Positions 2,888 through 52,392 of a stretch of 64,000 nucleotides of DNA are shown here, one piece after another. The notes beneath the pieces are model-generated. The model ran no database searches. It was not told the DNA's origin and worked only from the letters and a program-made list of their open reading frames with translations. Origin of the DNA: Candidatus Daviesbacteria bacterium (lineage in GTDB: Bacteria; Patescibacteriota; Microgenomatia; Daviesbacterales; UBA10151); contig JACOXD010000004.1 of assembly GCA_016176465.1 (NCBI GenBank), positions 50,119-114,118 on the forward strand. The letters are read 5' to 3'. Numbering within the stretch: the stretch's first letter is position 1; each line of letters opens with the position of its first letter. A program made the position numbers and the translations under genes.

Positions 2888-3149
2888 TATAAAAACAATT
2901 TCTTTGGTTATTATATTTTCCATACTAATTGGGGTTGCTATATTTTTTATAACTAATAAAAATACTCCAACAATTTCTAATATAAAATCATTTAATTTTT
3001 CCCAAAATATTGATCCCTCTCCTTCTTCTTCACCTACCCCAGAACCAGTTGATGAAAATACCAATTTAATGGAACAGTTAGAAAAAAATATACCAGAAGA
3101 TTTTTCTCAGGATTTTGAAGAAATAAAAAATATGGTAAATAATTACTAA
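2880..3149 (+). CDS. Membrane-anchored hypothetical protein with a Pro/Ser-rich linker
   Basis: One N-terminal TM helix followed by a PSPSSSPTPEP low-complexity segment. Confidence 0.3.
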   Translation: MNNIKTISLVIIFSILIGVAIFFITNKNTPTISNIKSFNFSQNIDPSPSSSPTPEPVDENTNLMEQLEKNIPEDFSQDFEEIKNMVNNY

Positions 3150-3160
3150 TAGAAAAAAAC

Positions 3161-3349
3161 TTAATTTTTTAATTTAAATGCAGAATATGCTAAATATCCT
3201 GCAACAACTAATCCAAGTATACTAAACCAAGTTGGAACAACCCACCCAGCTATACTTGCTTCCCAACCTAAGAAAAACCTTAATAAATGCAAAATAGCAA
3301 TTACTGCAAAAATAATACCAGTTACTTGATTAAATGTTTGCTGTTTCAA
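3161..3349 (-). CDS. Small 2-TM membrane protein
   Basis: 62 aa with two hydrophobic helices. Confidence 0.35.
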   Translation of the reverse strand: MKQQTFNQVTGIIFAVIAILHLLRFFLGWEASIAGWVVPTWFSILGLVVAGYLAYSAFKLKN

Positions 3350-3387
3350 TTCTTAAATCACCTCCTTAATAAATTGTACACCTTTAA

Positions 3388-4359
3388 TTAAGGGTAAGTA
3401 GAGATATTTTTATGATGCTCATCAAGTGTTTTTGCATAATGGGAATTTCCTGCTGAGTCATGGTAATAAAAAAGATAAGGAGTATTTGGATTAGCATTAG
3501 CTACAGCTTTTAAAGAAGAAAGGGAGGGATTGCAAATAGGGGTGGGAGGTAAACCTCGATATTTATAAGTATTATAGGGAGATTCTATTAATTTATCATC
3601 ATTGCTTAAATGCCTTTTCCACCAACTCTTTTCTTTTTCCTGGAAACCCAGGGCATATTGAATTGAGGCATCAACATTTAATCCCACTCCTTCATTGAAA
3701 CGCCTCAGTAAAATTCCTGCTATCTCAGTTCTGGCTTTATCAGAACGCGCTTCCCTCTCAACTAAAGATGCCAAAATCACCCCTTCTTCCAAAGTTAATC
3801 CTTGTTTTTTTATTTTACCCTGCAACTCTTGATCGTATTTTTGTTCAAAATTATTTTTCATTATTGAAGCTATATTCTCTGGCGTTGTTTTAGGATTAAA
3901 TAAATAAGTATCAGGAAACATATATCCTTCCTCTGCAACTTGAATAAACTCATCACTCCCAATTCCTAACTCATCAGCTAATTTTTTTGCTACCTCTTCT
4001 ACTCTTAACCCTTCTACTATAGTTACCCATTTATCTACTGAGCCACTGGAGAGTGTTTTTATGATTTCATCAAGTGACATTTTCCCTGATAATTTAAAAT
4101 CTCCCGCTTCAATCTTTCCTACCATTTTAGTAAGTCTTAATTTGGTTTTAAAAACTAAATTAGAGCGAATTAATCCCATCTTTTCTAGGCGTTTTCCAAT
4201 ACTATCTGTAGATTCTCCTCTGGGAATAACAAAAGCTATTACTTCTCCAGTTGGGTTAACAGGGGAGTTTAGGTAACTCCAATAAAATTTTGCTGCCAAG
4301 AATGCTATAAAAACCAAAAAAAGCAAAATAATCCAATTTCTAAAAAAATCTTTTTTCAT
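3388..4359 (-). CDS. mltG: Endolytic murein transglycosylase MltG/YceG
   Basis: N-terminal TM, YceG-like domain, YNTYKYRGLPPTPICNP motif. Confidence 0.8.
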   Translation of the reverse strand: MKKDFFRNWIILLFLVFIAFLAAKFYWSYLNSPVNPTGEVIAFVIPRGESTDSIGKRLEKMGLIRSNLVFKTKLRLTKMVGKIEAGDFKLSGKMSLDEIIKTLSSGSVDKWVTIVEGLRVEEVAKKLADELGIGSDEFIQVAEEGYMFPDTYLFNPKTTPENIASIMKNNFEQKYDQELQGKIKKQGLTLEEGVILASLVEREARSDKARTEIAGILLRRFNEGVGLNVDASIQYALGFQEKEKSWWKRHLSNDDKLIESPYNTYKYRGLPPTPICNPSLSSLKAVANANPNTPYLFYYHDSAGNSHYAKTLDEHHKNISTYP

Positions 4360-4364
4360 ATTTT

Positions 4365-4427
4365 TGTCATTCTGAACCGTAGGCGAAGAATCTATATCAT
4401 GAGATCCTTCACTCCGTTCAGGATGAC
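4365..4427. repeat. MITE/REP-like nested palindrome element (tgtcattctga...gaagaatct...agatccttc...tcaggatgac)
   Basis: Outer inverted repeat gtcattctga/tcaggatgac and inner inverted repeat gaagaatct/agatccttc; lies between mltG and ruvX. Confidence 0.75.
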
Positions 4428-4440
4428 TCCCAAGACAGAG

Positions 4441-4821
4441 TCAGTTTAGCGAATCTAAAAAATTTTGTAAAATTAAAGCCGCAGCGTATGAATCTTCTTT
4501 CTCTTTTTTGGAAACTCCAATTTTTAACATTAAATCTTTAGCATCATGAGAAGTTAAAGTTTCATCAGTTTCTATCACCACTACCTTAGGGTATTTTTTT
4601 AATTCCTTAATAAACTTTTTAACTAAAGCTTTACTCTCCCCACTTTCTGCAACTCCAATAACTACCCTTTCTATTTCTTCCTGCTCTATAACCTTCTTTA
4701 TTTTATAAAGTGCATCATTTAATCCATTAATCTTTAAGGTTTTATAAATTGAGGCAATCGCTCCATCAGATAGCGCTAAGCCTATTTTTTTCTTACCATA
4801 ATCAACTCCTAAATACTTCAT
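4441..4821 (-). CDS. ruvX: Holliday junction resolvase-like protein RuvX/YqgF
   Basis: MKYLGVDYGKKKIGLALSD, the YqgF/RNase H-like fold signature. Confidence 0.85.
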   Translation of the reverse strand: MKYLGVDYGKKKIGLALSDGAIASIYKTLKINGLNDALYKIKKVIEQEEIERVVIGVAESGESKALVKKFIKELKKYPKVVVIETDETLTSHDAKDLMLKIGVSKKEKEDSYAAALILQNFLDSLN

Positions 4822-4936: not shown

Positions 4937-5569
4937 CTATTTTAATTTTGCCAATACTACCAACCTTTTAGTATTAAATCCAGGCGGTACGCAAGTCATT
5001 AAAGTTAGGTATCTGCCTACTTTGTCTGGTGGATTAATCACAGAAATATCTTTAGGATCAACAATTTTTATTTGCAAAGTAACGTATTCAAACTTTTGTC
5101 CTGAAACATAAAGTTCAATATTATCACCAATCTTTAACTCAGGTAATTTGGCAAAAATTGCCTGGAAATTTCCAGGCTTATATAGCTGGACTAGTGATGA
5201 ATGACCGGTGATAAAAATATTACCCTTTTCTCCGGGAAGAGCAGAACCAGGCAAATGGGCCAAATTTTCCTCAAAACTATTAGTATCTACTTTAACTAAA
5301 ATATCTTTTAAATTGATTTTATTAATGGTTAAAAAAAATCGATCATAAGTATAACTTCTCTCTTTACTGTCGGAGATAAAGGCCGGAAAATTGCCTATAT
5401 TTTGAATACTTACTCCTGCAACTTCTCCTTTTTGGGGATCGATTAAAGCTTTACTTTGCCAATAGTTACTAAATTCCCAAAACTTAAATGCAATAAGCGG
5501 CATAATTATTTGAACTAAAATAAAAATCCCAATGCTTAGGCAGATTAGCGAAAATATTTTAATAACCAT
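4937..5569 (-). CDS. Sortase family transpeptidase
   Basis: N-terminal TM, ITGHS (His) and LTLMTCVP (TLxTC Cys) motifs. Confidence 0.7.
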   Translation of the reverse strand: MVIKIFSLICLSIGIFILVQIIMPLIAFKFWEFSNYWQSKALIDPQKGEVAGVSIQNIGNFPAFISDSKERSYTYDRFFLTINKINLKDILVKVDTNSFEENLAHLPGSALPGEKGNIFITGHSSLVQLYKPGNFQAIFAKLPELKIGDNIELYVSGQKFEYVTLQIKIVDPKDISVINPPDKVGRYLTLMTCVPPGFNTKRLVVLAKLK

Positions 5570-11829: not shown

Positions 11830-12467
11830 TTATTTTTAAGTATTACTGTCCTTTCAACTTTTGCTTCCTGCCCAAATTTGGAAGTTGCAGTAATTATAAT
11901 GGTATTTGCAGATGCTGACAACTTAACCTCTTCTTTAAATTTTCCATCCGAATCTATCCCGATCTCTTGATTATTAACCATTACTTTAACTTCAGGATCA
12001 GTTTTACCCTCAACTATAACTGATGGGATATCTACTGTTTGCCCCTCTTGAGGACTTAAAACTTCTAATGTTGGTGCACCAATAAAGTGCCTGTAGGAAA
12101 TCCAAAGATAAGTAAAAAAAATTAGAACTATTAAAGTCACAACAGCAATCAAAACTCTAGATGGAGTAATCTGTAATTTTTTAGGAGATAGCGGGTTAGA
12201 AAAACTCTCCATTACTAATGGTGGATGTTTTCTGGCTTCGAAGTCTCTCCTAAAAATTGCCAGTAATTTTTCGCTATCTAACCCTAAAAATTTTCCATAG
12301 TTTTTAATAAAACCCTGGACAAAGGTAGAAGGTGGTAGTTTTTCAAAATTATCCCCCTCCAGTGCCTCTAGTAACTCTTTTCTAATTTTAGTATGTTTTT
12401 CAATATCTTCTAATGTTAAAAGTTTAGATTCTCTTATCTCTTTTAATATTTGACCAACAGTTCTCAT
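11826..12467 (-). CDS. rodZ: RodZ-like cytoskeleton protein (HTH-XRE, TM, C-terminal beta domain)
   Basis: N-terminal HTH, central TM VLIAVVTLIVLIFFTYLWI, C-terminal DUF4115-like region. Confidence 0.55.
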   Translation of the reverse strand: MRTVGQILKEIRESKLLTLEDIEKHTKIRKELLEALEGDNFEKLPPSTFVQGFIKNYGKFLGLDSEKLLAIFRRDFEARKHPPLVMESFSNPLSPKKLQITPSRVLIAVVTLIVLIFFTYLWISYRHFIGAPTLEVLSPQEGQTVDIPSVIVEGKTDPEVKVMVNNQEIGIDSDGKFKEEVKLSASANTIIITATSKFGQEAKVERTVILKNK

Positions 12468-12524
12468 AAGATCAATTGCTTCATTGGCTATTATACCTTA
12501 CAATAGCGCTCGCCAATCAAAGAA

Positions 12525-13886
12525 ATGCAACTAAAAAATCTTAAAGAAGCTCAGGAGTTTTTAGAAGAACAAATTCCTCAATCAGCAAAGTTAAAATATA
12601 TGGGTGATTGGGGATTAGAGAGGACTAAATATTTTTTAAAACTTTTAGGTAACCCTCAAGATAAAATTAAAATAATCCATGTAGCTGGAACATCAGGTAA
12701 GGGATCAACTGCACATTTAACTAGTTTAATTTTAAAAAATTTGGGATTTAAGGTGGGCTTAACAGTTTCCCCACAAATTCAGGGAATAACTGAGCGCATC
12801 CAAATTAACAATCAGTTTATTTCTGAAAAAGATTTCGTTGACACTTTAAATGAACTAGTTCCTTTTATTGAAAAAGCTAAAAAATCAAAATTTGAATCCT
12901 CTCCAAGTTACTTTGAAATCTTCACTGCTTTGGCTTATTATTTTTTTTGGAAGAAAAAAGTGGATTATGCAGTAATAGAGACAGGGTTAGGCGGATTACT
13001 TGATGCAACAAATGTTGTTAGTAATAAAAATAAAGTTTGTGTTATAACCAGAATTGGTTTAGATCATACTAAAATATTGGGTAAAAAAATTGAAGATATT
13101 GCTTTACATAAAGCGGGAATTATCCAGGAAGGAAACCAAGCTTTTTCCATTTACCAGAGTAAAAAAATTAATAAAGTATTTGAAAACCAAGCGTTAAAAA
13201 GAAATGCCAGGATAACATTGTTAAAAAAAGGAGCTAATTTTAAAAACCTTTTAGTAAATAAGACTCTCACCTCTTTTGATTTTAACTTTGAGAATACAAA
13301 GCTGAGTAATTTGAAGTTGGGTTTAGTGGGATTACATCAAGCAGAAAACTGCAGTTTATCTTTGGCAACTATTTCGTACTTAGCAAAACGGGACAATTTT
13401 AAATTTGATAAAGAAAAAACAAGAAGTGCTTTAAAGACTGCCCAATTTATTGGCCGCTTAAATCTATTTCAATTTAAAAATAGAGAGATATTAATTGATA
13501 GCGCTCATAATCCACAAAAAATGAAAAGTTTAGTATACACTTTATTAAAACTTTACCCTAATCAAAAATTAGACTTTTTAGTTGCGTATAAGAAAGAAAA
13601 AGATGTTGGCAGTATGTTAAAAATTATTTCCCCCTTGGCAAATAAAATATTTCCAACCAGTTTTAAAACAGATAATAAAGGCTGGATTTCACACTCCGAG
13701 GATCCAGCAAAATTAGCAAAAACCCTTAAAAAAATGGGCTTCAAAAATTACCAAATTATAAAAGATTGTGAGAAATTAATAGAGCAAGTTTTACCTTTAG
13801 TTGATAAAGCTTTGGTAATTACTGGTTCAATATATTTAATTTCTCAAATTTATCCAATTTTAAAAAAGACCCTTGACAATAAATAG
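12525..13886 (+). CDS. folC: Folylpolyglutamate synthase/dihydrofolate synthase (Mur ligase family)
   Basis: P-loop VAGTSGKGST, FolC-type layout, 453 aa. Confidence 0.8.
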   Translation: MQLKNLKEAQEFLEEQIPQSAKLKYMGDWGLERTKYFLKLLGNPQDKIKIIHVAGTSGKGSTAHLTSLILKNLGFKVGLTVSPQIQGITERIQINNQFISEKDFVDTLNELVPFIEKAKKSKFESSPSYFEIFTALAYYFFWKKKVDYAVIETGLGGLLDATNVVSNKNKVCVITRIGLDHTKILGKKIEDIALHKAGIIQEGNQAFSIYQSKKINKVFENQALKRNARITLLKKGANFKNLLVNKTLTSFDFNFENTKLSNLKLGLVGLHQAENCSLSLATISYLAKRDNFKFDKEKTRSALKTAQFIGRLNLFQFKNREILIDSAHNPQKMKSLVYTLLKLYPNQKLDFLVAYKKEKDVGSMLKIISPLANKIFPTSFKTDNKGWISHSEDPAKLAKTLKKMGFKNYQIIKDCEKLIEQVLPLVDKALVITGSIYLISQIYPILKKTLDNK

Positions 13887-13912
13887 CTTAAATAATAATC
13901 TTTACTCCGGCA

Positions 13913-14587
13913 ATGAAATTAAGCAAAGAAAAACTATTATTTTTACTTATTTTTTCAGTAATTGGCTTTATAACCTTACAAGTTCCGTTTACTAAACTAG
14001 CAGGATCTACTGTTTCTTTTACTTTATTTGATTTTTTTGCTCCAATTACTGGAGCATTTTTAGGCCCAGTTTTTGGAGTAACATCAGTATTAGCTGTTGA
14101 GGTTATAAATCTTTTTATTAAACATACTTATCTAACAACTGGATCTATTATTAGGTTATTCCCAATGCTATTTGCTGTTTTATATTTCTCTTTTGTCTCC
14201 AAAAAGAAACTAGGTAGTGAGAAAATCTTTATCTTTACTATCCCCCTTTTAGCAATGGCCCTGTTTATCGCCCATCCAATAGGAAGAAGTGTTTGGTATT
14301 ACTCTCTTTTTTGGTTAATTCCTTTAATTACTTTGATTAAAAAAGATAACTTATTTTTGAAAAGTTTAGGAGCCACTTTTTTTGCACACAGTGTTGGAGG
14401 TGCTTTATGGATTTGGGCATTCAACTTACCAGTATCTGTTTGGAACTCACTAATTCCAGTTGTAATTCAAGAAAGATTACTTTTTGCTCTAGGAATTGCG
14501 GGATCTTTTATCTTAGTAAAACACACGCTAAGGTTTCTGATTGAAAAAAGAATCCTTCCTAATGTATTTAAATTTAAAATTTCCTAA
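13913..14587 (+). CDS. Polytopic membrane protein; possibly a vitamin/folate transporter S-component, judged by context only
   Basis: About 6 TM helices, sits between folC and a DHFR-family reductase; no diagnostic motif. Confidence 0.25.
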   Translation: MKLSKEKLLFLLIFSVIGFITLQVPFTKLAGSTVSFTLFDFFAPITGAFLGPVFGVTSVLAVEVINLFIKHTYLTTGSIIRLFPMLFAVLYFSFVSKKKLGSEKIFIFTIPLLAMALFIAHPIGRSVWYYSLFWLIPLITLIKKDNLFLKSLGATFFAHSVGGALWIWAFNLPVSVWNSLIPVVIQERLLFALGIAGSFILVKHTLRFLIEKRILPNVFKFKIS

Positions 14588-15275
14588 ATTAAAAAATAGG
14601 CCTTTTTTTTATACCAATTTTGTCGAAACTTTAGATGGGAAAGTGCAAGTTTTAAACAAGGATAAGGAGAAATATTGGCCAATAGGAACTGATGTAGATT
14701 TAGAAGCCTTTAGGCAACTTCGGGCCAATGCAGATTTGCTAATCCATGGAAAACTTAGCGCCTTTCACTTTAGAACTGTTGATAGTTTATCTAAAGATCA
14801 TTTAAGAAATATGAGAAAAAAATTAAATAAAAATGAGTTTTTGCCATATATGATAATCAGTAATCACTCTGATGAAAGATTAATAGAATACCTAGAAAAT
14901 ACCCATGGTATTGTCCCTATTTTAGCTACCTCTCAAAAATCAAAAGTACCTGAAAAACTAACAAAAATTGTTGAAATTGTCCGCATCGGAAAAGAAGATA
15001 TTGATTTAAAAAAATTATCAGAATTTATTTTTAAAAACGGCTATAAAAATGTTTTAGTTGAAGGCGGACCAAATTTAGTGGGTTCTTTTTTAAAGATTGG
15101 TTTAATAGATGAGGTTTTCTTAACTTTAGCTCCCAAAATTTTTGGTAATTTAAAAGGTGAAACCCTAACTATGGTTGAGGGTGTTTTATTACCACCTGAT
15201 AAAATTAAAAAGCTTCATCTTCTTTCAATTAAAAAAGTTAGGGATGAAGTTTTTTTAAGGTATCGGATCATTTAG
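14541..15275 (+). CDS. RibD C-terminal/DHFR-family reductase
   Basis: VLVEGGPNLVGSFLKIGLIDEVFLTLAPKIFG matches the RibD_C/dihydrofolate-reductase-like fold. Confidence 0.6.
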   Translation: MKKESFLMYLNLKFPKLKNRPFFYTNFVETLDGKVQVLNKDKEKYWPIGTDVDLEAFRQLRANADLLIHGKLSAFHFRTVDSLSKDHLRNMRKKLNKNEFLPYMIISNHSDERLIEYLENTHGIVPILATSQKSKVPEKLTKIVEIVRIGKEDIDLKKLSEFIFKNGYKNVLVEGGPNLVGSFLKIGLIDEVFLTLAPKIFGNLKGETLTMVEGVLLPPDKIKKLHLLSIKKVRDEVFLRYRII

Positions 15276-15281
15276 ACGTAT

Positions 15282-15791
15282 CTATTTAGGCAAAGCAGTG
15301 ACAATTAATCTTTTTTGATCAAAACTGCCATCACAAGTATATAAAGTTAACTGATTTTTATCAGAAACCACCGCATCCACATCAGTTGGCAATACTTGGT
15401 GTTTTTTAGAAACTACATAAGTATAAGTTTTTTGATCATGTTCCACAATTATCTCATCCCCTATTTCAATATTTTTTAAAGGTCCAAATAAGTTTTCTTT
15501 ATTATGGGCATATAAAATTACATTTCCTTTTTCTGGAGTAGCGGAGGTAGCAAGCCAAGAAACCTTATCATCATAAAGCGTCCATTCATCATTAGAAATT
15601 ACCCCTTGGGCAATTGGTAAAGTTAAATCAAACGGTTTAAAATAAATCGCGCTCGGGGAAGTTTTTATTTGATATTGAGGATCTTCTTTTGGAAGTGGGC
15701 TGACTATTTCCTCGGCCCTAACGCTTTGCGGAGAAAATATTCTATCAGGATATAAACGGGCGACTATCAGCGAGACTATCGCTGCAGTCAT
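15282..15791 (-). CDS. Sortase family transpeptidase
   Basis: N-terminal TM, LYAHN (His) and LTLYTCDGS (TLxTC) motifs. Confidence 0.7.
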   Translation of the reverse strand: MTAAIVSLIVARLYPDRIFSPQSVRAEEIVSPLPKEDPQYQIKTSPSAIYFKPFDLTLPIAQGVISNDEWTLYDDKVSWLATSATPEKGNVILYAHNKENLFGPLKNIEIGDEIIVEHDQKTYTYVVSKKHQVLPTDVDAVVSDKNQLTLYTCDGSFDQKRLIVTALPK

Positions 15792-15819
15792 TAAAATAAA
15801 GAAGCCTTGTAAGAAAATC

Positions 15820-16227
15820 TCACTCTTCAGTTTTGCTCCTTACTATTTTTAAACCTAGCAAAATAGCTATGATCAAAACACCAAAGACTAGAATCCATTT
15901 AACAACTTCTATTTGGGCACCAGTTGCACCTAAAACTTTAGTAGCGCCTAAAACTTCTGGTTTAGCAGAGGCTGATGGGGATGGTGAAGGAGATGGAGAA
16001 GCTGCTGGATTAGCTGAAGGAGAGGGCGAAGCGCTGGGATCAGGGGTAGGTGTTGCAGATGGGGATGGAGAAACACTACCTTGAACAGGTGAGGGAGAAG
16101 GACTAGCTGAAGGAGATGCATCCTGAGCTAAAACTAAACAAGGAAAGTTTAAGTAAAAAACAGTGACAATAGCAAAAATAAATAAGCTGATAAAAGTTTG
16201 GGAGCTAAGTAGTAGTTTCTTGGGCAT
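15820..16227 (-). CDS. Ser/Pro-rich secreted protein with a C-terminal sorting-signal-like region (candidate sortase substrate)
   Basis: Signal peptide, SPSPSA repeats, then VLGATKVLGATG, hydrophobic helix and a KIVRSKTEE tail; lies adjacent to a sortase. Confidence 0.45.
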   Translation of the reverse strand: MPKKLLLSSQTFISLFIFAIVTVFYLNFPCLVLAQDASPSASPSPSPVQGSVSPSPSATPTPDPSASPSPSANPAASPSPSPSPSASAKPEVLGATKVLGATGAQIEVVKWILVFGVLIIAILLGLKIVRSKTEE

Positions 16228-16285
16228 AAAAACTACCTTCTATTTTACCATAACCTAAAAATTGCTTGATTGCAAGCAAGGAGTT

Positions 16286-17587
16286 TTAAGCAGCGGGAGC
16301 CAGGGTAAAACCTAAATCACCCTCTACAGCTAATTTACCCTTAGGTGTATAAGCCCTTGCTTTTCCTGTACCACTTGCACTACCCCCTCTATCCTCTTGT
16401 AAATTAACCCCTTCTACTTCAATTCTTGCCTCATCTCCATACTGAAGCATTCTAAGAAATCTAACGCGAATTAACTCTGTAAGTAAAGCAACCCTTCCTT
16501 TATACTCTGGTTTTGATAAGATCACCATTGCACCAAATTGATTCATAGCTTCTTCTGTTATTACTCCTGGAATTACTGGGAATCCTGGGAAATGTCCTCC
16601 TCTCCAGTTTATATCAGGATGAATAAGATTTACCATGTGGCCTGAGGCTCTTTCTCCAGGAACTAACTCTAAAACTCCTCCTATAAAGTTAATTGGCCAG
16701 CGATGAGGAATAATATCCTCTACCTGTTCCCTGGTCATTATAGAATCTGCTCTCATTGGAGGAGGTCCAACTAATTCTCCATAACCCTCGGGAAGATGTT
16801 CCCTATATCTAGGTCTAACTCCAACATATTCTGTATGACCATTTGGGTAAGGCTTTGTTACAACTTTAACTATACTATTAGCATAATCTTGGGCCGAAGG
16901 TGTATGTCCAAACTCACCTATAGAGTCCCAATATGCAATCTTTGACTCTTCCGGCCTTCTTCTAGACCAATTATCTGTAACAAATGTTTGATCTAGCGCA
17001 TTCCCCACGACTTCTATGTATTTGAATCTTTCAAATTCTCCTCCTGCAGTAAATGCAAGCCGGAATTGGGTAGATGCAAATCTTTTACCCTCTCTTACAT
17101 TTATATATATATCGGGCACATAAAGCATTGCTTCAGGGTGATCAGTGTGTGCTTGAATACTTTGATTAAAAACAACAGGAGCTCCATCAGGCATCATGGG
17201 AGCTAATGCTCTTAAAAGTGCTAAGTTCCGACCATAATTAAATGCAATAGACTCTTCTAAGGTCCCTCGCAAACCTGCCCCTGTGTTCATAACTAAAGCA
17301 CCTACTACTCCACCTAATAAATGAGCTTTTTCTACATATTGATCAATAGTTTCATCTCTATTAAGATCCCCTTCAACATAAAACATATCCCTTCCAAGAG
17401 CTCTTACCCCATTTACTATTAATTCCTGATCTGAGCGGTGTTTATCGCTCCTAAAACCTCCTAGAACATTCCACTCTGCAACGGCAAAAGCCAAGGCAGT
17501 ATACTTACCTACATCTCTAGAAGTTCCAGTAATGGCAACAAGGGGTCTTCTTTTTTCTCCGGATTCTAATGCTGCGGGACCTGCCAT
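16286..17587 (-). CDS. Fusion of an SDR-type reductase (FabI-like Y-x6-K; putative enoyl reductase) and a FabZ-like hotdog 3-hydroxyacyl-ACP dehydratase
   Basis: N-terminal VAITGTSRDVGK Rossmann, LVMNTGAG (NNAG-like), YINVREGK (Y-x6-K); C-terminal HRWPINFIGGVLEL...WRGGHFPGFPVIPGVITEEAMNQ is the FabZ signature. Confidence 0.6.
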   Translation of the reverse strand: MAGPAALESGEKRRPLVAITGTSRDVGKYTALAFAVAEWNVLGGFRSDKHRSDQELIVNGVRALGRDMFYVEGDLNRDETIDQYVEKAHLLGGVVGALVMNTGAGLRGTLEESIAFNYGRNLALLRALAPMMPDGAPVVFNQSIQAHTDHPEAMLYVPDIYINVREGKRFASTQFRLAFTAGGEFERFKYIEVVGNALDQTFVTDNWSRRRPEESKIAYWDSIGEFGHTPSAQDYANSIVKVVTKPYPNGHTEYVGVRPRYREHLPEGYGELVGPPPMRADSIMTREQVEDIIPHRWPINFIGGVLELVPGERASGHMVNLIHPDINWRGGHFPGFPVIPGVITEEAMNQFGAMVILSKPEYKGRVALLTELIRVRFLRMLQYGDEARIEVEGVNLQEDRGGSASGTGKARAYTPKGKLAVEGDLGFTLAPAA

Positions 17588-17591
17588 AAAT

Positions 17592-18527
17592 TTATCCTAA
17601 TCTCAAATGAGTTACGCCTGCTTCTACTTCTAAAATTTGTCCTGTCACAGGTAGTGCGAGATCACTAATAAGATAAAGTACTGTGTGAGCTGCTTCTTCA
17701 GGGGTAATAAATCTTTGACCACCAAGAAGGGGCATTTTTTGTGCGATAGGTAATAGAGGGTCAACCCCCAGCTTTTTTTGCTCATCTGTTTGTTGTCGAC
17801 GATAAGCAAATTCCGCAGTTCTCCAAATTTTGGTCCTAATCGGGCCAAGAGCAGCTGAGTTAACAGCTACTCCATCTTGAGCAAATTCAATCGCCCAAGC
17901 CTTAGTGAGCCCATCAATGCCTGCTTTAGTTGCAACATAAGCTGATTGATAAGCGTTGCCATGACGTCTACTTATGCTTGTTATATTAGCAATTCGCCTT
18001 CTACCCCTAGGCGCTTTTCTTATATCTTCAATTACTCCCAATGTAGTATTAAAAGTTCCGATAAGATTAACCTCTACAACTCCCCTAAAGGTAATCATCA
18101 TCTTTTCTCTTGCTCTATCAGTTTCCCCACTAAATGGTCTATCTGCAGTTATTCCTGCGTTATTAACTAGAGTATCTAGCCCTCCAAATAAATCTCTTCC
18201 CACTCTGGCAATCGCCACTCCTGTTTCCGGCAATTGAATCTCTCCGGTTACTACCTCCACTCCTACTCCAAAACTATTAAGAGTATGAGCCAGTTCTTCT
18301 AATTGAACTTTTCTTTCTGGTTTTCCATTTAAAACTAAACTTGCTCCCGCAATTGCAAATCTTTCAGCAATAGCTTTACCTACTCCTGCATTTGCTCCTG
18401 TAATAGCTACAGTTCTTCCTGTTAAACTTAGTCCTGAGGTTCTTTCACCTTCTACAGTTCTATGGGGACCTAAGTGTCTTCGGAGAATTTGTCTTCTTGT
18501 TTCTGGTGCTTCTGAAGGTGCTGGCAT
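17592..18527 (-). CDS. 3-oxoacyl-ACP reductase-like SDR ketoreductase (FabG-like)
   Basis: TGANAGVGKAIA, NNAG, catalytic S...YVATK (Y-x3-K). Confidence 0.75.
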   Translation of the reverse strand: MPAPSEAPETRRQILRRHLGPHRTVEGERTSGLSLTGRTVAITGANAGVGKAIAERFAIAGASLVLNGKPERKVQLEELAHTLNSFGVGVEVVTGEIQLPETGVAIARVGRDLFGGLDTLVNNAGITADRPFSGETDRAREKMMITFRGVVEVNLIGTFNTTLGVIEDIRKAPRGRRRIANITSISRRHGNAYQSAYVATKAGIDGLTKAWAIEFAQDGVAVNSAALGPIRTKIWRTAEFAYRRQQTDEQKKLGVDPLLPIAQKMPLLGGQRFITPEEAAHTVLYLISDLALPVTGQILEVEAGVTHLRLG

Positions 18528-18734
18528 ATTTTTTTTAATTAAGCGCTAAACTAACATAGCAAAATATAATTTGCAATATAGTATTTACTAAAAGATCAAT
18601 CTGTAACTTTGGAAACAAAATTTTGGTTATTTTAATTACAAATTTTTAGTAACTAAAACTACAGAAAGTTAATTTTTAAAAGAATATATTGACAACTATT
18701 AACTAAAATTATAGGATCAATTTCATAATTAAAC

Positions 18735-20084
18735 ATGGAAAGATCTGGAGATATTGCTGTAACTGGAATGGGTCTTGTTTCTCCCTTAGGACCTGATAAA
18801 GAAAGTTCCTTTGAAGCCATGCTCAGAGGAGAATCCGGTATAGCATTACTTGAACCACAAAGAAAGTATAAAGGTCTTGGCACTCGAATTGGTGGACAAC
18901 TAAAAGGCTTTCGACCGGAGGATCACTTTAGCGCATTTGCCCGTTTACAAACTCACCGCTCAACCCAAATGGCAGAGGTAGTAGTAAGACAAGCTATAAA
19001 AGATGCAGGTTTTGAAATAGGAAAGAGAGGAGTTTTTGCTCCTGATCGAAAAAAAAGTTTAATCTCAGGTACTAGCGTAGGAGGGATGGTTGGACTTCCT
19101 TCAGAAGAGTGGGTATTAGCAAGGGCTCATTATGAAGAATGGTCTAGGGCGGCCTCTATGAGTACTTTAAGAAGTCTTCCAGAAAGATCTGCAACTTATC
19201 CTGCAATGGAGCATGGGATCACGGGTCCTGTTAAACAAGAATCTGGAGCCTGTGCAACATTCGCCTTAGTATTATCCGAAGCAGAGTTTAGGCTTAATTA
19301 CCGTTATACGAGAAACGGTTTAGATGAAAATGACCCAGATGCCACAGATGCAGACTTAATAATAGTAGTTGGAACAGATGCGGGAATTTCCCCACTAATG
19401 ATTAGATCCTTTAATGTCTTGGGGGGTAAGGAGGGAGCGCTTTCCAGAAGGAACGATGATCCAGAAGGTGCTAGCAGACCCTATGATCAATATGCGGATG
19501 GATTTGTTCCTGCTGAAATGGCAGCAGCTCTTCTCTTAGAGCCTCGAGAACTGGCTGAAGCAAGAGGTGCACATATTTATGCTTTATATCTAGGTGGAGC
19601 TGATACTTGCGATGCTGATAGGGCTACAGCTGTGAATTCAAATAGACTAGCCGATACATATAGACTTACTTTAAGAAGAAGTGGAATTATAATTGCTAAA
19701 AGGATTGATATTGCTTTTAATGCCCATGCCACCTCAACCCTTCCCGGTGATAAAGGTGAAGCAACTGCAGTGAAAATAGCATTTGGAGATAAAGCCAAAG
19801 ACATTCCTATAAGTGCAATGAAAGGGTATTTTGGTCATGGTCTAGGTCCTTGCGCCGGAGGAGAGATAGTAATGGGATTAATGGCTATGGAGAAACAAAT
19901 CGTAATTGCTAATCGTAATTTACATAATCGCATCCCTGAAGCTGAAGGTTTATTTTTAGTAGAGCCTGAATTAGTAGATGGTGAACTTAGATACTATAGA
20001 CCTTGGAAATATGATGTTATGTTGAAAGCTTCTTCTGGATTTGGTGGAATAAATTCTGTTCATGCTTTTAGACTATATCAATAG
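18735..20084 (+). CDS. Beta-ketoacyl-ACP synthase (KAS I/II, FabF/FabB-like), divergent
   Basis: AVTGMGLVSPLG; Cys in ESGACATFA; His in NAHATSTLPGDKGE; Lys/His in AMKGYFGHGLGPCAG. Confidence 0.8.
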   Translation: MERSGDIAVTGMGLVSPLGPDKESSFEAMLRGESGIALLEPQRKYKGLGTRIGGQLKGFRPEDHFSAFARLQTHRSTQMAEVVVRQAIKDAGFEIGKRGVFAPDRKKSLISGTSVGGMVGLPSEEWVLARAHYEEWSRAASMSTLRSLPERSATYPAMEHGITGPVKQESGACATFALVLSEAEFRLNYRYTRNGLDENDPDATDADLIIVVGTDAGISPLMIRSFNVLGGKEGALSRRNDDPEGASRPYDQYADGFVPAEMAAALLLEPRELAEARGAHIYALYLGGADTCDADRATAVNSNRLADTYRLTLRRSGIIIAKRIDIAFNAHATSTLPGDKGEATAVKIAFGDKAKDIPISAMKGYFGHGLGPCAGGEIVMGLMAMEKQIVIANRNLHNRIPEAEGLFLVEPELVDGELRYYRPWKYDVMLKASSGFGGINSVHAFRLYQ

Positions 20085-20087
20085 TTT

Positions 20088-21410
20088 ATGCGAGAAAAAG
20101 ATCTAGACGAGAGAGTTGCTATTGTTGGAGTTGGAGCTGTAACTCCTGCTGGTAATTCTGCCCAGGCTACTTGGGAAGGATTTACTCACTCAAACCGCTC
20201 CTTTATTACAGCTATGTCTGTTGGTCGTGATAATTTCCATTCTATGCAACTTGCAGGCAAAGTTAAAGATTTTGATCCATATAAATACGCTGGTGGAAAA
20301 CAACTTAAAAGATCAGACCGCTATGCTCAATTTGCAGTTGCAGCCTCGGTTGAGGCAATGTTAGCTTCAGGCCGCTTAAGGATGGTTACAAAACCAAATA
20401 GAACAACTGCAGCAGTTTATGAATTAATCGATATTGATCCTTTTAGAATAGGTGTAGATATGGGTATAGCGGTTGGCGGATCTTCTGCAATTGACCAAGG
20501 GAGAGAAGACATAATGCTAAAAGGCCCGGATAGAATTAGTCCTAATACAATTTCTCTTTTAAATCCCTCAAAAGCTGCAAGCGATCCAGCCCTTATAATT
20601 GGCGCGCTAGGCGGAGCGATGACTCATAACAGCGCGTGTGTGAGCGGAGTCAGCGGAATTATAGAGCTTTATAAAAAAATAGTCAGAGGTGATTTGGACA
20701 TGGGAGTTGGAGGTGGAACTGAGTCCCCCCTACACCCACTAGCTTTCTATGCATTCCAAAAAATGGGAGTGTTGGTTTCATATGAGAAATTTAAAGATAG
20801 CCCGGAAGAAGCCGTAAAGTCACTTGATGTAGATGGGGAGGGATTTGCTATGGGTGAAGGGGTAGGAGTTTTAGCCTTAGAGAGATATAGTTTGGCGGTA
20901 AAAAGAAAGGCAAGAATTCTAGGGGAAATTGTAGGACCAGCTTATTTTTGTGATCCAAGGGATGTGTTAGATCCAACTGAAAAGAACGTTGAAATATTAG
21001 TAGAAATGATCCTTGAAAATTCTGGCTTAGAACCATACGAGGTTGATCATCATAACCTTCATGCAGGCGCATCAACGGGTGATGGCACAGAACTGCGAGG
21101 ATCAAGAAGAGTTTACAAATACCAAACTGAATATATAAGTTTTCATGGACCTAAATCAAGAATTGGTCACTTAATGGGCGGGGCTGGAGGTGCTGAAAGT
21201 GTAATTTTAGTTTATGCAGTAGCAACTGATACCGACCCGCCTACTGCCAATTTGAAGAATCCAAGAGAGGCAGGCTTTTATGTTCCCAGAAGAACAGGTA
21301 GAAGATTAATAAGGGCAGGGATAAAAACAGCTTTGGGTTTAGATGGGCAATATGGTGGGTTTGGAGTCGTCAAACCTGCCCCCAGATATCTTAATTACGC
21401 TGCTGCTTAA
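20088..21410 (+). CDS. Second beta-ketoacyl-ACP synthase (FabF-like, retains Cys-His-His; not a CLF)
   Basis: AIVGVGAVTPAGN; Cys in HNSACVSGV; His in NLHAGASTGDGTE; PKSRIGHLMGGAGGAE. Confidence 0.75.
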   Translation: MREKDLDERVAIVGVGAVTPAGNSAQATWEGFTHSNRSFITAMSVGRDNFHSMQLAGKVKDFDPYKYAGGKQLKRSDRYAQFAVAASVEAMLASGRLRMVTKPNRTTAAVYELIDIDPFRIGVDMGIAVGGSSAIDQGREDIMLKGPDRISPNTISLLNPSKAASDPALIIGALGGAMTHNSACVSGVSGIIELYKKIVRGDLDMGVGGGTESPLHPLAFYAFQKMGVLVSYEKFKDSPEEAVKSLDVDGEGFAMGEGVGVLALERYSLAVKRKARILGEIVGPAYFCDPRDVLDPTEKNVEILVEMILENSGLEPYEVDHHNLHAGASTGDGTELRGSRRVYKYQTEYISFHGPKSRIGHLMGGAGGAESVILVYAVATDTDPPTANLKNPREAGFYVPRRTGRRLIRAGIKTALGLDGQYGGFGVVKPAPRYLNYAAA

Positions 21411-21450
21411 TTTCTTTTGTTTATGAGACGCTCGCTCAGCTTACTCATTA

Positions 21451-22446
21451 CTAAGAGGTGACCGGCTCCCAGCTAGTAGCAATGTGTAATCCTAAGCTAG
21501 TTAATATTTTCTCTGCTCTACCCTCACCAATAATTTTTGGATTCATGTCTGTTAGAGTAGTTTTTGTTCCAAATTCAACAAATCTTTGGACTCCTTCTTG
21601 TCTTAATTTCAAAACAGCATCTTTCCAACGGACAGCTGAAGTTAGCTGTGCTTCTAGCTCTTGTCTAATTTGTTCTACGGTCTCTAAAACCCAGGCTTTA
21701 GTATTGCCTACTATACCTACTACAGGTGGTTTAATAGGGGAACTTTCCAAAGCAGGGAGCAATCTTTCCCGGGCTGGTTGCATATGACGGGTATGAAAAG
21801 GACCTGCTACTCCTTTTAATAAGAAACCCCTTATTCTCGCTGGCTCCAGTAAGGCCGGAAGCTGATCCAAACTCTTCTTTAGCCCTCCGACTACGAACTG
21901 CTCACCATTATTAACCGAAGCAACATCAACTCCTATAGGACTTACTAAATTGATTAGTTCTGCTTCATTTTCTTCACTTGTTTCCATCCTAACAACATAT
22001 AATCCTCCTGGATTTTGAATACAAGCTTCCTGCATTGCCTCACCACGAATTTGCACTAATCTCAAAGCCTCTTCAAAGCTTAAAGCACCTGCCGCAACTA
22101 AAGCAGTATAGAGCCCAAGGCTGTGTCCAGAAGTAGAAATTTCCCATTCACTGAAGTCTCCATTATTCTCGTCTTCGAAGAGCTCTCTACAAACCTCGCC
22201 ATAAGCTAAGAGTCCTGGCTGGGTTACTCTAGTCTCAGTTAAAACCTCAATTGGTCCTTTAAACATTAGCTCTGTTAAAAATTTTCCACCACTACCTGTT
22301 GAAAAAGGACCTAAAGTATCATTAGCAACATCTAGTGTTTTTTTAACTCCTGGATATGTGGAGTATAAATCTGCTGCCATCCCTACAAATTGGCTTCCTT
22401 GGCCTGGAAACACCCAGGCGACTTTAGGTTTTTGCTCTACGCTCAT
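21451..22446 (-). CDS. fabD: Malonyl-CoA:ACP transacylase (FabD-like acyltransferase)
   Basis: FPGQGSQ, GHSLG active-site Ser, GPFHT. Confidence 0.85.
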   Translation of the reverse strand: MSVEQKPKVAWVFPGQGSQFVGMAADLYSTYPGVKKTLDVANDTLGPFSTGSGGKFLTELMFKGPIEVLTETRVTQPGLLAYGEVCRELFEDENNGDFSEWEISTSGHSLGLYTALVAAGALSFEEALRLVQIRGEAMQEACIQNPGGLYVVRMETSEENEAELINLVSPIGVDVASVNNGEQFVVGGLKKSLDQLPALLEPARIRGFLLKGVAGPFHTRHMQPARERLLPALESSPIKPPVVGIVGNTKAWVLETVEQIRQELEAQLTSAVRWKDAVLKLRQEGVQRFVEFGTKTTLTDMNPKIIGEGRAEKILTSLGLHIATSWEPVTS

Positions 22447-22486
22447 ATTAGGAGAAATACTATCATAAGCTTAGAGTAATTTTCTA

Positions 22487-24592
22487 CTAAGTAGAAGAAG
22501 AACCTGAGGACTGGGTGGCAAAATATTCTTCTGCATTTCTGACTAATACATCTCTAGGTTTAGCACCCTCACCTGGTCCTATAATTCCTGCTGCTTCTAA
22601 CTCATCTATAATCCTAGCTGCTCTGGCATAACCTACCCTTAGTCTCCTTTGCAAAAGTGAAGCTGAAGCCCGGTCATACTGGCAAACTGTTCTAACTGCT
22701 TCCTCAAATAAGTCATCTCTCTCATTTACTCCCGCTATCCCATTTCTACCCCATCTACCAAGTGGCATCTCAGTTACCTCAGTGGTGTATTGTGGCTCAA
22801 TTCCAATGGATTTTAGATACTTAATTAAATTATTAGTCTCTTGATCTGTAAGTAGCACTCCTTGAATCCTAATAGGCTTACTAGCATCAGGTGGTAAAAA
22901 TAACATATCTCCTCTTCCTAATAATTTTTCTGCCCCCGGACCATCCAAAATTACTCTGGAATCCACCATGGATGAGACATTAAAAGCAATACGACATGGG
23001 ATGTTAGCTTTGATTAAACCAGTTATAACATCAACAGAAGGTCTCTGAGTGGCTACTACTAAATGAAGTCCAGTAGCCCGAGCTAACTGGGCAATCCGGG
23101 TGATAGCATCCTCAACTTCAACAGGAGCAAACATCATTAAATCAGCTAACTCATCAACAATAATTACAATATTAGGAAGTGCTTGGAATCCTGACATCTC
23201 GTTATAGCCTGTAATATTTCTTACCCCCACAGATTGGAAAAGTTTATACCTTCTATCCATCTCCGCCATGGACCACTTTAGTGCAGATAAAATTTTCTCA
23301 GGCTCAGTAATAACCGGAGTTAAAAGGTGGGGGATTCCGTTATAATTTGTTAACTCCACCCTTTTTGGATCTATTAAAATTAATTTAAGCTCATCGGGTG
23401 AGTTTCTATATAAAAGCGTTGCAATAATAGCGTTAATTAAAACTGATTTTCCAGAGCCAGTGGTTCCGGCAATCAAACAGTGCGGCATCCGGTCTATATC
23501 TACAACCAAAGGACTGGAGGCTGTATCCCTACCTAATGCAATAGCTAGCTTTGATTTATGTTTACTCATCTCATCTGATGCTAAAATAGCTTTTAAACCC
23601 ACAATTTCTAAAGAGTGATTTGGTACCTCAATCCCAACTAAAGATTTTCCCGGAATAGGAGCTTCAATTCTGACAGTTCCTGTTCTGGTGGCTAGCGCCA
23701 GTGCGATATCATGTTGTAAGTTAGCAATCTTGGCAATTTTAGTTCCTGATGCAATCTCTAATGCATATTGAGTAACAGCAGGTCCGCCGTTAACTTCAGC
23801 CACTCTTGCTTGAATTCCAAAAGAATCTAAGGTTTTTTCAATAATTGATGCACTTTTTTTAATATCCCCCCGCTCAGCGGACGCTCCTACCCTATCAGAG
23901 AGAAGTGAAAGGGGTGGATACTTCCAAACAGTATTAGATCCTGCTACATTAGCAACTAATTGATCAGAAATTATCCCCTCTTTTGCGGCTGCTTTAGGCT
24001 TTTGCCTCTCATCCATTCCAGAGACTTTAATAGCCACATGTTTAATCGGCATCACATCAGAGTGATTAAATAACCTATTCACTCCTCTAAATAACTTACC
24101 AAAAATTTTGACACTTCCTTGTAAAATATGTCCGAGCGAAGACAGAGAGGTATTAAAAAGTACTACCAATCCCACTAAAAATACTCCTAGTAGTACAACT
24201 GCGCTTCCAACAGGAGTTAATAATTTAGCTGAGTTTACCCAAATCTCAACACCTAAATTTCCTGCAAAGGTAGCGCTAAAGATTGCTGTTAAACCTAAAA
24301 GAGCAACTAAAGATGTAACAAATCCCAAAAAAACATTTAACTGAGCCACTCTCCAGCGAAGTTTTTGTAAAGTTAAACCAGATAAAATAAAAAAAATAGC
24401 GGCAAAATAAGCGCCCCAGCCAAAGTTAGTAAGTAAAAAATTCCTCCAAAAACTTAGCGTCTGCGTTTCTGTAAACATTGAAACAAGAGATAGTCCACCC
24501 AGGATAAAAGAGACAATAGAAGCTATTGTAATTACTGTTCTCTGACGCAGTTTAAGTCTTGGTATAGAATAAATTGATCTTCGGCGGGGCAT
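22487..24592 (-). CDS. ftsK: DNA translocase FtsK
   Basis: 4 N-terminal TMs, Walker A AGTTGSGKSV, Walker B IVDELADLMM, C-terminal winged-helix gamma domain. Confidence 0.9.
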   Translation of the reverse strand: MPRRRSIYSIPRLKLRQRTVITIASIVSFILGGLSLVSMFTETQTLSFWRNFLLTNFGWGAYFAAIFFILSGLTLQKLRWRVAQLNVFLGFVTSLVALLGLTAIFSATFAGNLGVEIWVNSAKLLTPVGSAVVLLGVFLVGLVVLFNTSLSSLGHILQGSVKIFGKLFRGVNRLFNHSDVMPIKHVAIKVSGMDERQKPKAAAKEGIISDQLVANVAGSNTVWKYPPLSLLSDRVGASAERGDIKKSASIIEKTLDSFGIQARVAEVNGGPAVTQYALEIASGTKIAKIANLQHDIALALATRTGTVRIEAPIPGKSLVGIEVPNHSLEIVGLKAILASDEMSKHKSKLAIALGRDTASSPLVVDIDRMPHCLIAGTTGSGKSVLINAIIATLLYRNSPDELKLILIDPKRVELTNYNGIPHLLTPVITEPEKILSALKWSMAEMDRRYKLFQSVGVRNITGYNEMSGFQALPNIVIIVDELADLMMFAPVEVEDAITRIAQLARATGLHLVVATQRPSVDVITGLIKANIPCRIAFNVSSMVDSRVILDGPGAEKLLGRGDMLFLPPDASKPIRIQGVLLTDQETNNLIKYLKSIGIEPQYTTEVTEMPLGRWGRNGIAGVNERDDLFEEAVRTVCQYDRASASLLQRRLRVGYARAARIIDELEAAGIIGPGEGAKPRDVLVRNAEEYFATQSSGSSST

Positions 24593-51820: not shown

Positions 51821-52384
51821 ATGTTGGAATCTGCCCCAAAAATTAAACTTAATTTAAACCTGCTTTTCCCTCAAGGCATCCCGCAAAAGATTCATGTTAA
51901 ATTTTTAAAGTGGTTGCTTACATTTGGAAGATATATAGCAGTAGTTGTTGAGATTTTAGTATTAGCTACTTTTGCAGCAAGGTTTAAGTTTGATAGTGAC
52001 TTAGTTCATCTTAAAGAAGAAATTAACAAACATATCCCATTTATAGAAAGCCTAGCAACCCAAGAAGTTTTAATTAGAGAGACTCAATTTAAAATTGATG
52101 TTGGTAAAAAAACCTACAACTTAAACCCTAATATCTCTTTGATTGTAACTACAGTAGCCTCACTTACTCCAACAGGAATTAGGATTAGCAGTATGCATTT
52201 TGATAACAATTCAGGGAAGGTTAATCTTCCATTTAGGCTCGCAGGCAAAACAAATTCAAACAATGATTTGGCAGTTTTTTTAAGCAACTTAAAAAATGAT
52301 TCAACCTTTACTAATATTGATTTGGTTGGTTTGACTTTTGAACAAGGCGAGATGAACTTTTCTATTACCGGAAATGTTAAGTAA
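51821..52384 (+). CDS. PilN-like type IV pilus assembly protein (bitopic)
   Basis: Single TM followed by a periplasmic alpha/beta domain; sits next to a PilO-like gene. Confidence 0.4.
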   Translation: MLESAPKIKLNLNLLFPQGIPQKIHVKFLKWLLTFGRYIAVVVEILVLATFAARFKFDSDLVHLKEEINKHIPFIESLATQEVLIRETQFKIDVGKKTYNLNPNISLIVTTVASLTPTGIRISSMHFDNNSGKVNLPFRLAGKTNSNNDLAVFLSNLKNDSTFTNIDLVGLTFEQGEMNFSITGNVK

Positions 52385-52392
52385 CTAAAATT

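Follow-up and report, generated by a model that had tools for sequence, protein, structure and literature searches.

Canonical type II fatty acid synthesis (FAS-II), as in Escherichia coli and Bacillus subtilis, is built from the FabD, FabF/FabB, FabG, FabZ and FabI/FabL enzymes. The same five enzyme families are encoded side by side at positions 16286-22446 of a 64,000-nucleotide stretch of a Candidatus Daviesbacteria genome (contig JACOXD010000004.1, positions 50,119 to 114,118). We refer to the whole stretch as the window and to the five genes as the island. The canonical catalytic residues are shared as well: Cys-His-His of the ketosynthases (KS), GQGSQ, GHSLG, Arg and His of FabD, Ser-Tyr-Lys of FabG, His and Glu of FabZ, and Tyr-x6-Lys of the enoyl reductase (ER). 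Unlike the canonical system, the island joins dehydratase (DH) and ER in one polypeptide, has two deeply diverged FabF-type KS, and resides in a member of the Candidate Phyla Radiation (CPR); no acpP (for acyl carrier protein, ACP), fabH or acc (for acetyl-CoA carboxylase, ACC) occurs in the island or the window, and its proteins score far under equivalog cutoffs. Most probably the island is a working FAS-II elongation module, divergent and catalytically intact, long resident in a CPR genome, a reading to which we assign a probability of about 0.57.

Several other described systems resemble the island in part. The mycobacterial FAS-II operon, fabD-acpM-kasA-kasB-accD6, extends preformed primers with KasA/KasB; like the island it sets two adjacent, active FabF-family KS beside fabD, and it has a carboxylase in the operon, as do the island's relatives described below. 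It also includes AcpM, and its DH and ER (HadABC, InhA) are separate and unrelated, so the likeness implies no evolutionary relationship. In Pseudomonas aeruginosa the KAS I/II-family enzyme FabY can take over the initiating role of FabH, and it offers a possible model for a cluster without FabH; neither of the two KS here shows specific similarity to FabY in NCBIfam or PDB comparisons, where both match generic FabF models best. As for fusions, LpxC-FabZ (NCBIfam PRK13188) links lipid A and fatty acid synthesis steps and is a precedent for FabZ fused to a partner enzyme, and peroxisomal MFE-2 joins a classical Y-x3-K dehydrogenase of the short-chain dehydrogenase/reductase (SDR) family to a MaoC-type hydratase for beta-oxidation, so that SDR and hotdog in a single chain have a precedent as well. 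Unlike either, the island joins a Y-x6-K reductase to a FabZ-type dehydratase.

A large part of bacterial diversity belongs to the CPR, or Patescibacteria. In published genome analyses these bacteria are described as lacking fatty acid synthesis (PMC5220378, PMC4736985), and the source of their membrane lipid is an acknowledged open question (PMC7242380, PMC5220378, PMC4736985); the remark in an earlier note on this DNA, made from the letters alone, that FAS genes are unexpected in such a host agrees with this literature. The nearest published parallel is the remark that some Nealsonbacteria have FAS-II homologs, without AcpS and FabD (Probst et al. 2020, PMC7242380). Like the Daviesbacteria island, these are CPR FAS-II homologs lacking ACP-processing machinery, and they raise the same question of where acyl chains come from. 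The two cases differ in that FabD is present here, in that no ER::DH fusion, two-KS layout or Crp/ACC/BirA linkage is described there, and in lineage, Nealsonbacteria being Parcubacteria and Daviesbacteria belonging to a different superphylum, Microgenomates. An active cluster would mean that some CPR lineages, at least, make or elongate their own acyl chains, and the picture of universal lipid auxotrophy would have to be revised.

The five open reading frames (ORFs) were re-found exactly, and all of the motifs first quoted for them are present. On the minus strand lie the ER::DH fusion gene (16286..17587, 433 aa) and, 4 nt upstream of it, the gene for a FabG-like 3-ketoacyl reductase (KR; 17592..18527, 311 aa). 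An AT-rich intergenic region (18528..18734) separates these from two genes on the plus strand, KS1 (18735..20084, 449 aa) and, 3 nt after it, the second and very divergent KS2 (20088..21410, 440 aa), both of the FabF family. Convergent with KS2, the gene of a FabD-type malonyl-CoA:ACP transacylase (AT; 21451..22446, minus strand, 331 aa) completes the set. The genes are small and their products soluble. Every product passes Pfam gathering thresholds: adh_short and FabA in the fusion, adh_short (2.5e-34), adh_short_C2 and KR in the reductase, ketoacyl-synt and Ketoacyl-synt_C in each KS, and Acyl_transf_1 in the AT. Together, the Pfam, NCBIfam and PDB profile matches bear out the proposal of the earlier note that a FAS-II-like set covers each catalytic step of an elongation cycle, and its CPR-like host is confirmed by identical proteins deposited at NCBI as Candidatus Daviesbacteria.

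The top NCBIfam models are FabZ, FabG, FabF (twice) and FabD, with all scores far under the equivalog cutoffs (in bits, against the cutoff: fabD 214/261, fabF 225 and 238/494, FabG 145/296, FabZ 64/113; FabL reaches 23/328), so the five proteins are very divergent members of their families. Four independent Logan assemblies are 100% identical in nucleotides to the island, and one of them (L001) covers 11891-23042 with both junctions. The juxtaposition of island and host genes is therefore not an artefact of assembly or binning. The neighbours are core housekeeping genes, those for MetK, AlaRS, a FolC-like ligase, sortases, FtsK, RNase J, PNPase, IF-2, NusA, DnaK/DnaJ/GrpE, LepA, MurJ, TIM and UvrD.

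The fusion protein carries much of the argument. Its C-terminal 150 residues (hotdog domain at about aa 285-433, 16289..16735, minus strand) match FabZ by HMM (1e-17; NCBIfam FabZ 1.6e-17; PDB profile 2.5e-17) and by Foldseek, with TM scores of 0.77-0.88 to FabZ structures. Its motif reads HRWP...GHFPGFPVIPGV; across 11 homologs of the fusion HRWP...GHFPG...E is invariant, and the catalytic His332 and Glu346 are present in every one. The SDR half (about aa 12-262, 16802..17554, minus strand) has an NxAG motif and aligns over its full length with a single solved structure, B. subtilis FabL (PDB profile 3.2e-14; 3oic at 5e-14 with the whole fusion). FabG-type PDB entries match only the first 90-140 or so residues, the Rossmann part. 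In the profile alignment Tyr161 and Lys168 fall on the Y-x6-K catalytic pair of FabL. According to a review of enoyl reductases (PMC9260719), the FabL signature is Asn...Ser...Tyr-x6-Lys, and N117, S143, Y161 and K168 of the SDR half supply it; the first three are invariant in the fusion family, and K168 is found in the window protein and in 8 of the 11 members. FabL (enoyl-ACP reductase III, an NADPH enzyme; PDB 3OIC/3OID) also shares the TGxSRxVGK-type N-terminus. Because of the full-length FabL match, the aligned Asn/Ser/Tyr-x6-Lys residues and the separate KR next door, the SDR half is best read as a putative enoyl reductase, and the ER::DH assignment has good support at the sequence level. 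The fusion of a reductase with FabI-like Y-x6-K spacing to FabZ, as initially described, thus becomes more specific, with a FabL-type first half.

The SDR half departs from FabL in several ways. It is about 20-25% identical to it, is fused to FabZ, and lacks the canonical TGxxxGxG: the motif reads TGTSRDVG, the middle Gly being replaced by Asp25, invariant in all 11 family members. In three relatives (P0007, P0008, L008) His replaces the Lys at the K168 position. An AlphaFold2 (AF2) model of the fusion reached pLDDT 66 and pTM 0.49, with values of 77-95 in the Rossmann core and an unreliable lid and linker; FabL, top by sequence profile, is only 46th among many classical SDRs when Foldseek is run on this model of pLDDT 66, so that by fold the SDR half is not told apart as ER or KR. 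An MFE-2-like role in beta-oxidation was considered and ruled out by the FabZ-type hotdog and the Y-x6-K spacing of the SDR.

A literature search, the dedicated enoyl reductase review included, found no account of this cluster or of a FabL-FabZ fusion. A FabL-like ER joined to FabZ would be a new domain fusion and, if active, would extend the list of bacterial enoyl reductase architectures. Public annotation calls the fusion an "SDR family NAD(P)-dependent oxidoreductase" and KS2 "hypothetical protein HYS91_01195"; with labels so generic, automated metabolic reconstructions would miss the KS, DH and ER steps, and with them the pathway.

KS1 and KS2 match FabF crystal structures over their entire length (1e-42 and 8e-56, respectively), and each keeps the Cys-His-His triad and the catalytic Lys. 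They are 22% identical to one another. KS1 has an intact GFGG gating loop and an unusual substrate-loop motif, LPER (canonically LMPN), common to the single KS of related CPR clusters, of which it is the ortholog; among other proteins it is an orphan, with a best non-self match at 35% identity. In KS2 the motifs GFGG and ASRP have become GLDG and AVKS, while the Cys of SACVSG is retained; its orthologs are a KS of locus L015 (KSb441) and protein P0289 (46%). Homolog searches with the two KS otherwise returned generic FabF proteins at 30-36% from many phyla and one CPR-type match at 46%. A split between initiation and elongation, which the earlier note had suggested, is plausible for such a pair. 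By analogy, the two could be a KasA/KasB-like division of chain length, a FabY-like initiator with an elongator, or a heterodimer; the retained Cys of KS2 argues against a classical chain-length factor (CLF).

The last of these options belongs to a different reading, in which the product is not bulk membrane fatty acid but a specialised lipid or something polyketide-like, for example an unsaturated or hydroxy acid or a surface-lipid anchor, and KS1 and KS2 form an obligate heterodimer analogous to KS/CLF. The pair is conserved and translationally adjacent despite the 22% identity, the gating and structural motifs of KS2 are degenerate, sortase and cell-surface genes adjoin the island, a phosphonopyruvate-decarboxylase-like gene stands beside the cluster at locus L005, and weak NCBIfam matches were seen to the cispentacin AmcE/AmcF models and to an ApeI-like hotdog. 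We nevertheless consider this improbable: the active-site Cys is kept in KS2, where CLF has Gln; the full set of KR, DH and ER implies complete reduction; cyclase, aromatase, thioesterase, ACP and tailoring genes are missing; and most relatives have a single KS, their associated genes being those for ACC, BirA, FabH and a phospholipid transferase.

Known cluster types of this sort were also compared directly. A type II polyketide synthase KS/CLF pair was rejected on the Cys of KS2 (SACVSG) and on a window with no ACP, cyclase or aromatase; an aryl-polyene (APE)-type cluster was rejected because ER is present, fused to DH, and ACPs and export genes are absent. The ApeI-like Pfam match merely overlaps the FabZ hotdog.

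FabG models are the best NCBIfam matches of the KR (144.6 bits, under the cutoff of 296), and TGxxxGxG, NNAG and S...YxxxK can be seen in its translation. KR proteins are about 55-60 residues longer in clusters with two KS (311 aa in the window; 304 aa in L015, at 3632-4546) than in those with one (249-257 aa), the difference being due to an N-terminal extension and an internal insertion. The AT aligns over its full length with Thermus thermophilus FabD (4e-42), with GQGSQ, GHSLG, the malonyl-binding Arg and the PFH His all in register (TIGR00128 fabD, 214 bits, cutoff 261). Its gene follows ftsK on the same strand after a gap of 40 nt in which no terminator is predicted, which suggests that it is integrated into a host transcription unit.

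If the island is an elongation module of the FAS-II kind, the FabD-like AT would load malonate from malonyl-CoA onto a carrier thiol, presumably that of a holo-ACP encoded elsewhere. KS1 and KS2 would then carry out the decarboxylative Claisen condensation, the FabG-like KR would reduce the 3-keto group, the FabZ half of the fusion would dehydrate the intermediate, and the FabL-type half would reduce the enoyl product, probably with NADPH, yielding saturated acyl chains that go into membrane lipid. With DH and ER on one chain, their stoichiometry would be fixed at 1:1 and the enoyl intermediate could pass directly to the reductase. The two KS could divide the work by chain-length range, as KasA and KasB do, and initiation could proceed by malonyl decarboxylation or by a FabY-like reaction. 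Observed are the domain identities, the intact catalytic residues, the conservation of the cluster architecture, purifying selection in relatives and the host-like synonymous composition; we infer that the scheme depends on ACP, that its product is saturated, which cofactor it uses, that the genes are co-transcribed and how KS1 and KS2 share the work.

The carrier is the part of the scheme that the window does not supply. A Pfam sweep of every other window ORF of at least 100 aa, a motif scan and phmmer searches found no ACP, AcpS, FabH, ACC, biotin ligase, PlsX/Y/C or other lipid gene in the 64 kb, which extends to the whole window the absence of ACP, AcpS, FabH and ACC already noted for the island. 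Some Patescibacteria do carry acpP (PMC12455944). The phmmer searches used E. coli AcpP, B. subtilis AcpA and E. coli AcpS as queries against six-frame ORFs of at least 40 aa from the window and 17 related loci. Two short ORFs considered as ACP candidates (52 aa in L005, 87 aa in L014) were ruled out by Pfam.

It might be supposed, then, that the pathway is ACP-free, running on CoA thioesters, or that one of the conserved unknown proteins of 170-193 aa, for instance, acts as an unrecognised carrier. To our knowledge, no characterised FabD-, FabF- or FabZ-type enzyme works independently of ACP, which counts against the idea, as does the fact that many bacteria carry acpP apart from some of their fab genes, the searches having covered the window and related loci. 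Since the characterised enzymes need ACP and some Patescibacteria have acpP, our default assumption is that unlinked acpP and acpS are presumably encoded elsewhere in the genome. An ACP-free route would fit the absence of ACP and AcpS from every locus examined and the presence in the clusters of conserved proteins without a Pfam match, and it has a precedent, as a hypothesis, in what Probst et al. proposed for Nealsonbacteria (PMC7242380). A FabD-type transacylase would have no obvious role lacking a carrier, and altogether we regard this alternative as quite improbable. Equally a long shot is the broader proposition that the Patescibacteria ER::DH clusters constitute a self-contained FAS without canonical ACP or AcpS, on CoA thioesters or an unrecognised carrier. 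Were this true, it would amount to a mechanistically new bacterial FAS, and some CPR lineages would be lipid-autonomous.

Relatives of the fusion are few. An indexed search of 5.8 billion proteins gave 11 relatives over the full length, 34-43% identical; 1.84 billion representatives, searched by HMM at full sensitivity, yielded three close 50%-identity clusters plus fragments, with more distant SDR::hotdog fusions (400-545 aa) as a second tier; a metagenome scan contributed two further loci only. The fusion therefore defines a rare family. Named sources include Daviesbacteria RIFCSPLOWO2_01_FULL_39_12 and "Patescibacteria group bacterium Ike-100m-12", and every fusion locus that can be placed is from Patescibacteria. 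One locus, L006 (CAZYPW010000011.1), is titled "uncultured Gammaproteobacteria"; each of its genes (GH-like, Crp, KS, KR, fusion, DinB, epimerase) has a homolog, in the same order, in Daviesbacteria-type contigs, and for that reason it is probably mis-binned or mislabelled.

The related loci numbered L005 to L012 share a core order, a Crp/FNR-family regulator followed by KS, KR and the fusion. After this core the loci differ in what they add, the genes being those for an AT with a membrane anchor, for a long-chain acyl-AMP/CoA ligase and a biotin ligase of BirA type, for a conserved unknown protein (187-193 aa) and for AccC, AccD and AccA fused in one chain of 1090 aa. ACC and BirA belong to the clusters of L009 and L012, and the acyl-AMP/CoA ligase lies within that of L012. 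Most relatives have a single KS. L015 repeats the window layout, with two KS genes, orthologous to the KS1 and KS2 types, divergent from KR and fusion; L016 has regulator, fusion and KS; and in L017 a distant fusion has as neighbours AT, a CDP-alcohol phosphatidyltransferase and a bona fide FabH that exceeds both NCBIfam cutoffs. Between them the relatives' clusters, with ACC, BirA, ligase, FabH and phosphatidyltransferase, cover malonyl-CoA supply, initiation and phospholipid assembly.

Several features of these neighbouring genes are recorded here in their own right. The ACC fusion (L009 6861-10133, L012 12576-15848) has no recognisable biotinyl (BCCP) domain. The 187-193-aa protein, which has no Pfam match and lies between the BirA-type ligase and the ACC fusion (L009 6294-6857, L012 11934-12515), may be a divergent biotin carrier. 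A BPL_LplA_LipB match had raised the question of lipoate synthesis, with the cluster supplying octanoyl-ACP; this was ruled out, the ligase being BirA-type. In the Ike-100m-12 genome a thiamine pyrophosphate enzyme resembling phosphonopyruvate decarboxylase (TIGR03297, 142 bits, below cutoff) follows directly after the fusion (L005 11327-12682).

The same associations bear on whether the module starts chains or only lengthens them. ACC, BirA and FabH in the relatives suggest possible de novo synthesis; the acyl-AMP ligase of L012, and a window without FabH or ACC, suggest possible extension of scavenged acids. The latter, taken as a reading of the whole island, would have it elongate or remodel fatty acids scavenged from a host and activated by acyl-AMP ligase or acyl-ACP synthetase, much as mycobacterial FAS-II extends its primers, and the two adjacent FabF-type KS beside fabD, as in the kasA-kasB operon, would suit it. 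CPR bacteria are indeed thought to recycle host lipids (PMC7242380, PMC12455944). Malonyl units, and so ACC, would be needed in any case, and fused ACC and BirA are found in the relatives' clusters; the true FabH of L017 fits de novo synthesis. We judge the scavenging alternative unlikely, if worth keeping in mind.

Selection on the family is evident. Between relatives, dN/dS is 0.10-0.25 for KS, KR and fusion, similar to the 0.12-0.14 of the adjacent housekeeping epimerase, and the relatives are under purifying selection. The dS values between L009 and L012 are uneven (KS 0.32, fusion 1.10, ACC 1.86, Crp 2.67), which hints at possible recombination or gene replacement inside the cluster. Erosion is evident too. 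In L009 the KR is internally deleted (3696-4031, 111 aa); in L008 (9097-9822) and L013 the fusion is truncated, with loss of the hotdog domain; in L010 only a 20-residue KS remnant (3125-3184) is left upstream of KR and fusion; and in L018 a lone KS2-type gene (3108-4397) sits in a PGK-Wzy_C neighbourhood shared with the complete cluster of L015. Such losses would be expected if the island were itself a non-functional relic heading for disappearance, a view we hold to be very unlikely, since none of the five window ORFs is shortened, all their catalytic residues are in place, four samples carry the identical sequence, and the family is under purifying selection. The simplest account would be that selection maintains the module in some lineages while it erodes in others, as expected under reductive evolution.

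The FAS-II elongation module remains our preferred reading, and a number of these observations weigh against it. All five proteins fall well short of NCBIfam equivalog cutoffs. The dinucleotide motif of the ER domain has its invariant Asp, and three relatives have the Lys-to-His change; Foldseek, on a moderate model (pLDDT 66), gives generic SDR matches, with FabL at rank 46. The gating loop of KS2 is degenerate, and the cluster has decayed in several relatives. Finally, searches for ACP and AcpS came up empty both across the 64 kb of the window and, in about 11 distinct loci, up to about 10 kb from the cluster; genes for ACC, BirA, FabH and Pls are likewise missing from the window.

How long the module has been resident can be judged from composition. 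The earlier note gave the island a GC content of 42-46% against 33% for its neighbours and proposed acquisition from a higher-GC donor. The island is indeed richer, with true values of 40.7% against 35.2% for the rest of the window; per gene, the range is 40.8-42.4% against a mean of 34.5% for other genes, some housekeeping genes reaching 41-44%. The excess is confined to codon positions 1 and 2 (GC1 0.56 against 0.45, GC2 0.45 against 0.34, island against others), whereas at position 3 the two hardly differ (GC3 0.241 against 0.244, Mann-Whitney p=0.86). As had been said, the proteins are rich in Ala, Arg and Gly, with A+G+R+P at 0.33 against 0.21. Synonymous codon usage and codon log-likelihood lie inside the host range. 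By raw 4-mer distance the island stands out more than any other part of the window (z=2.8); once normalised for GC, its tetranucleotide signature is ordinary (z=-0.71). Because GC3 and the GC-normalised 4-mers are host-like, the GC excess is explained by protein composition and not by recent import.

A recently acquired genomic island from a higher-GC donor therefore seems highly unlikely, even though bulk GC, raw 4-mer distance, the Ala-, Gly-, Arg- and Pro-rich proteins and the patchy distribution of the cluster would all be compatible with one. Besides the host-like GC3, codon usage and normalised 4-mers, there is no integrase, transposase, tRNA or flanking repeat at the borders (tRNA scan, Pfam sweep of other ORFs), nor any gene for mobility; the hunt for a donor found none, with best non-self identities of 35-46%, the nearest relatives of the fusion at 36-43%, and those that can be placed being CPR; and the architecture is kept in L015. 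The cluster is, on the other hand, far from universal in the host lineage. Given host-like synonymous sites, core-gene flanks, placeable relatives that are all CPR and all distant, and the L015 layout, it would appear to be an old, patchily retained feature of the lineage and not a one-off island.

The divergent intergenic region was described from the letters as an AT-rich bidirectional promoter of about 200 nt. Its 207 nt, 18.8% GC and divergent flanks stand; promoter-like matches across the region are not above chance (11 found, 15.2 expected), and the same holds for terminator-like matches overall. One match, TTGACA-17-TAGGAT at 18689-18717 (plus strand), ends 18 nt before the KS1 ATG. A 9-mer resembling TAACTAAAA occurs three times at 18584-18710, an 18-nt direct repeat (18647-18664 and 18697-18714) included; these repeats could be a regulatory site, or chance in DNA of 19% GC. 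Right after the fusion stop codon a consensus scan finds a terminator-like hairpin with a T-run (16262..16279, minus strand), for which the argument is positional only. Both tRNA genes and Rfam families are absent from the 64-kb window.

The related clusters offer a clearer candidate for regulation. In some 190 kb of related loci the palindrome TGTAA-N6-TTACA is matched exactly at five places (L006 7067-7082; L009 1500-1515 and 2234-2249; L012 4979-4994; L015 3533-3548), all in promoter regions of the Crp/FNR-family regulator or of KS/KR genes, and it is probably the operator of that regulator. The island has neither a Crp/FNR regulator nor this palindrome, one-mismatch matches lying elsewhere in the window at chance frequency.

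A sortase gene borders the island on one side and ftsK on the other. The sortase gene (15282-15791, minus strand) adjoins one for a Pro/Ser-rich secreted protein of 135 aa (15820-16227, minus strand) whose N-terminus is signal-like and which has a membrane helix at its C-terminus; it could be a substrate of the sortase or a protein of the cell surface. Another sortase gene lies at 4937-5569. At 51821-54121 the window has PilN- and PilO-like genes followed by that of a 299-aa protein with purple-acid-phosphatase-N-like and dockerin-like domains, an arrangement that suggests a type IV pilus or adhesion locus.

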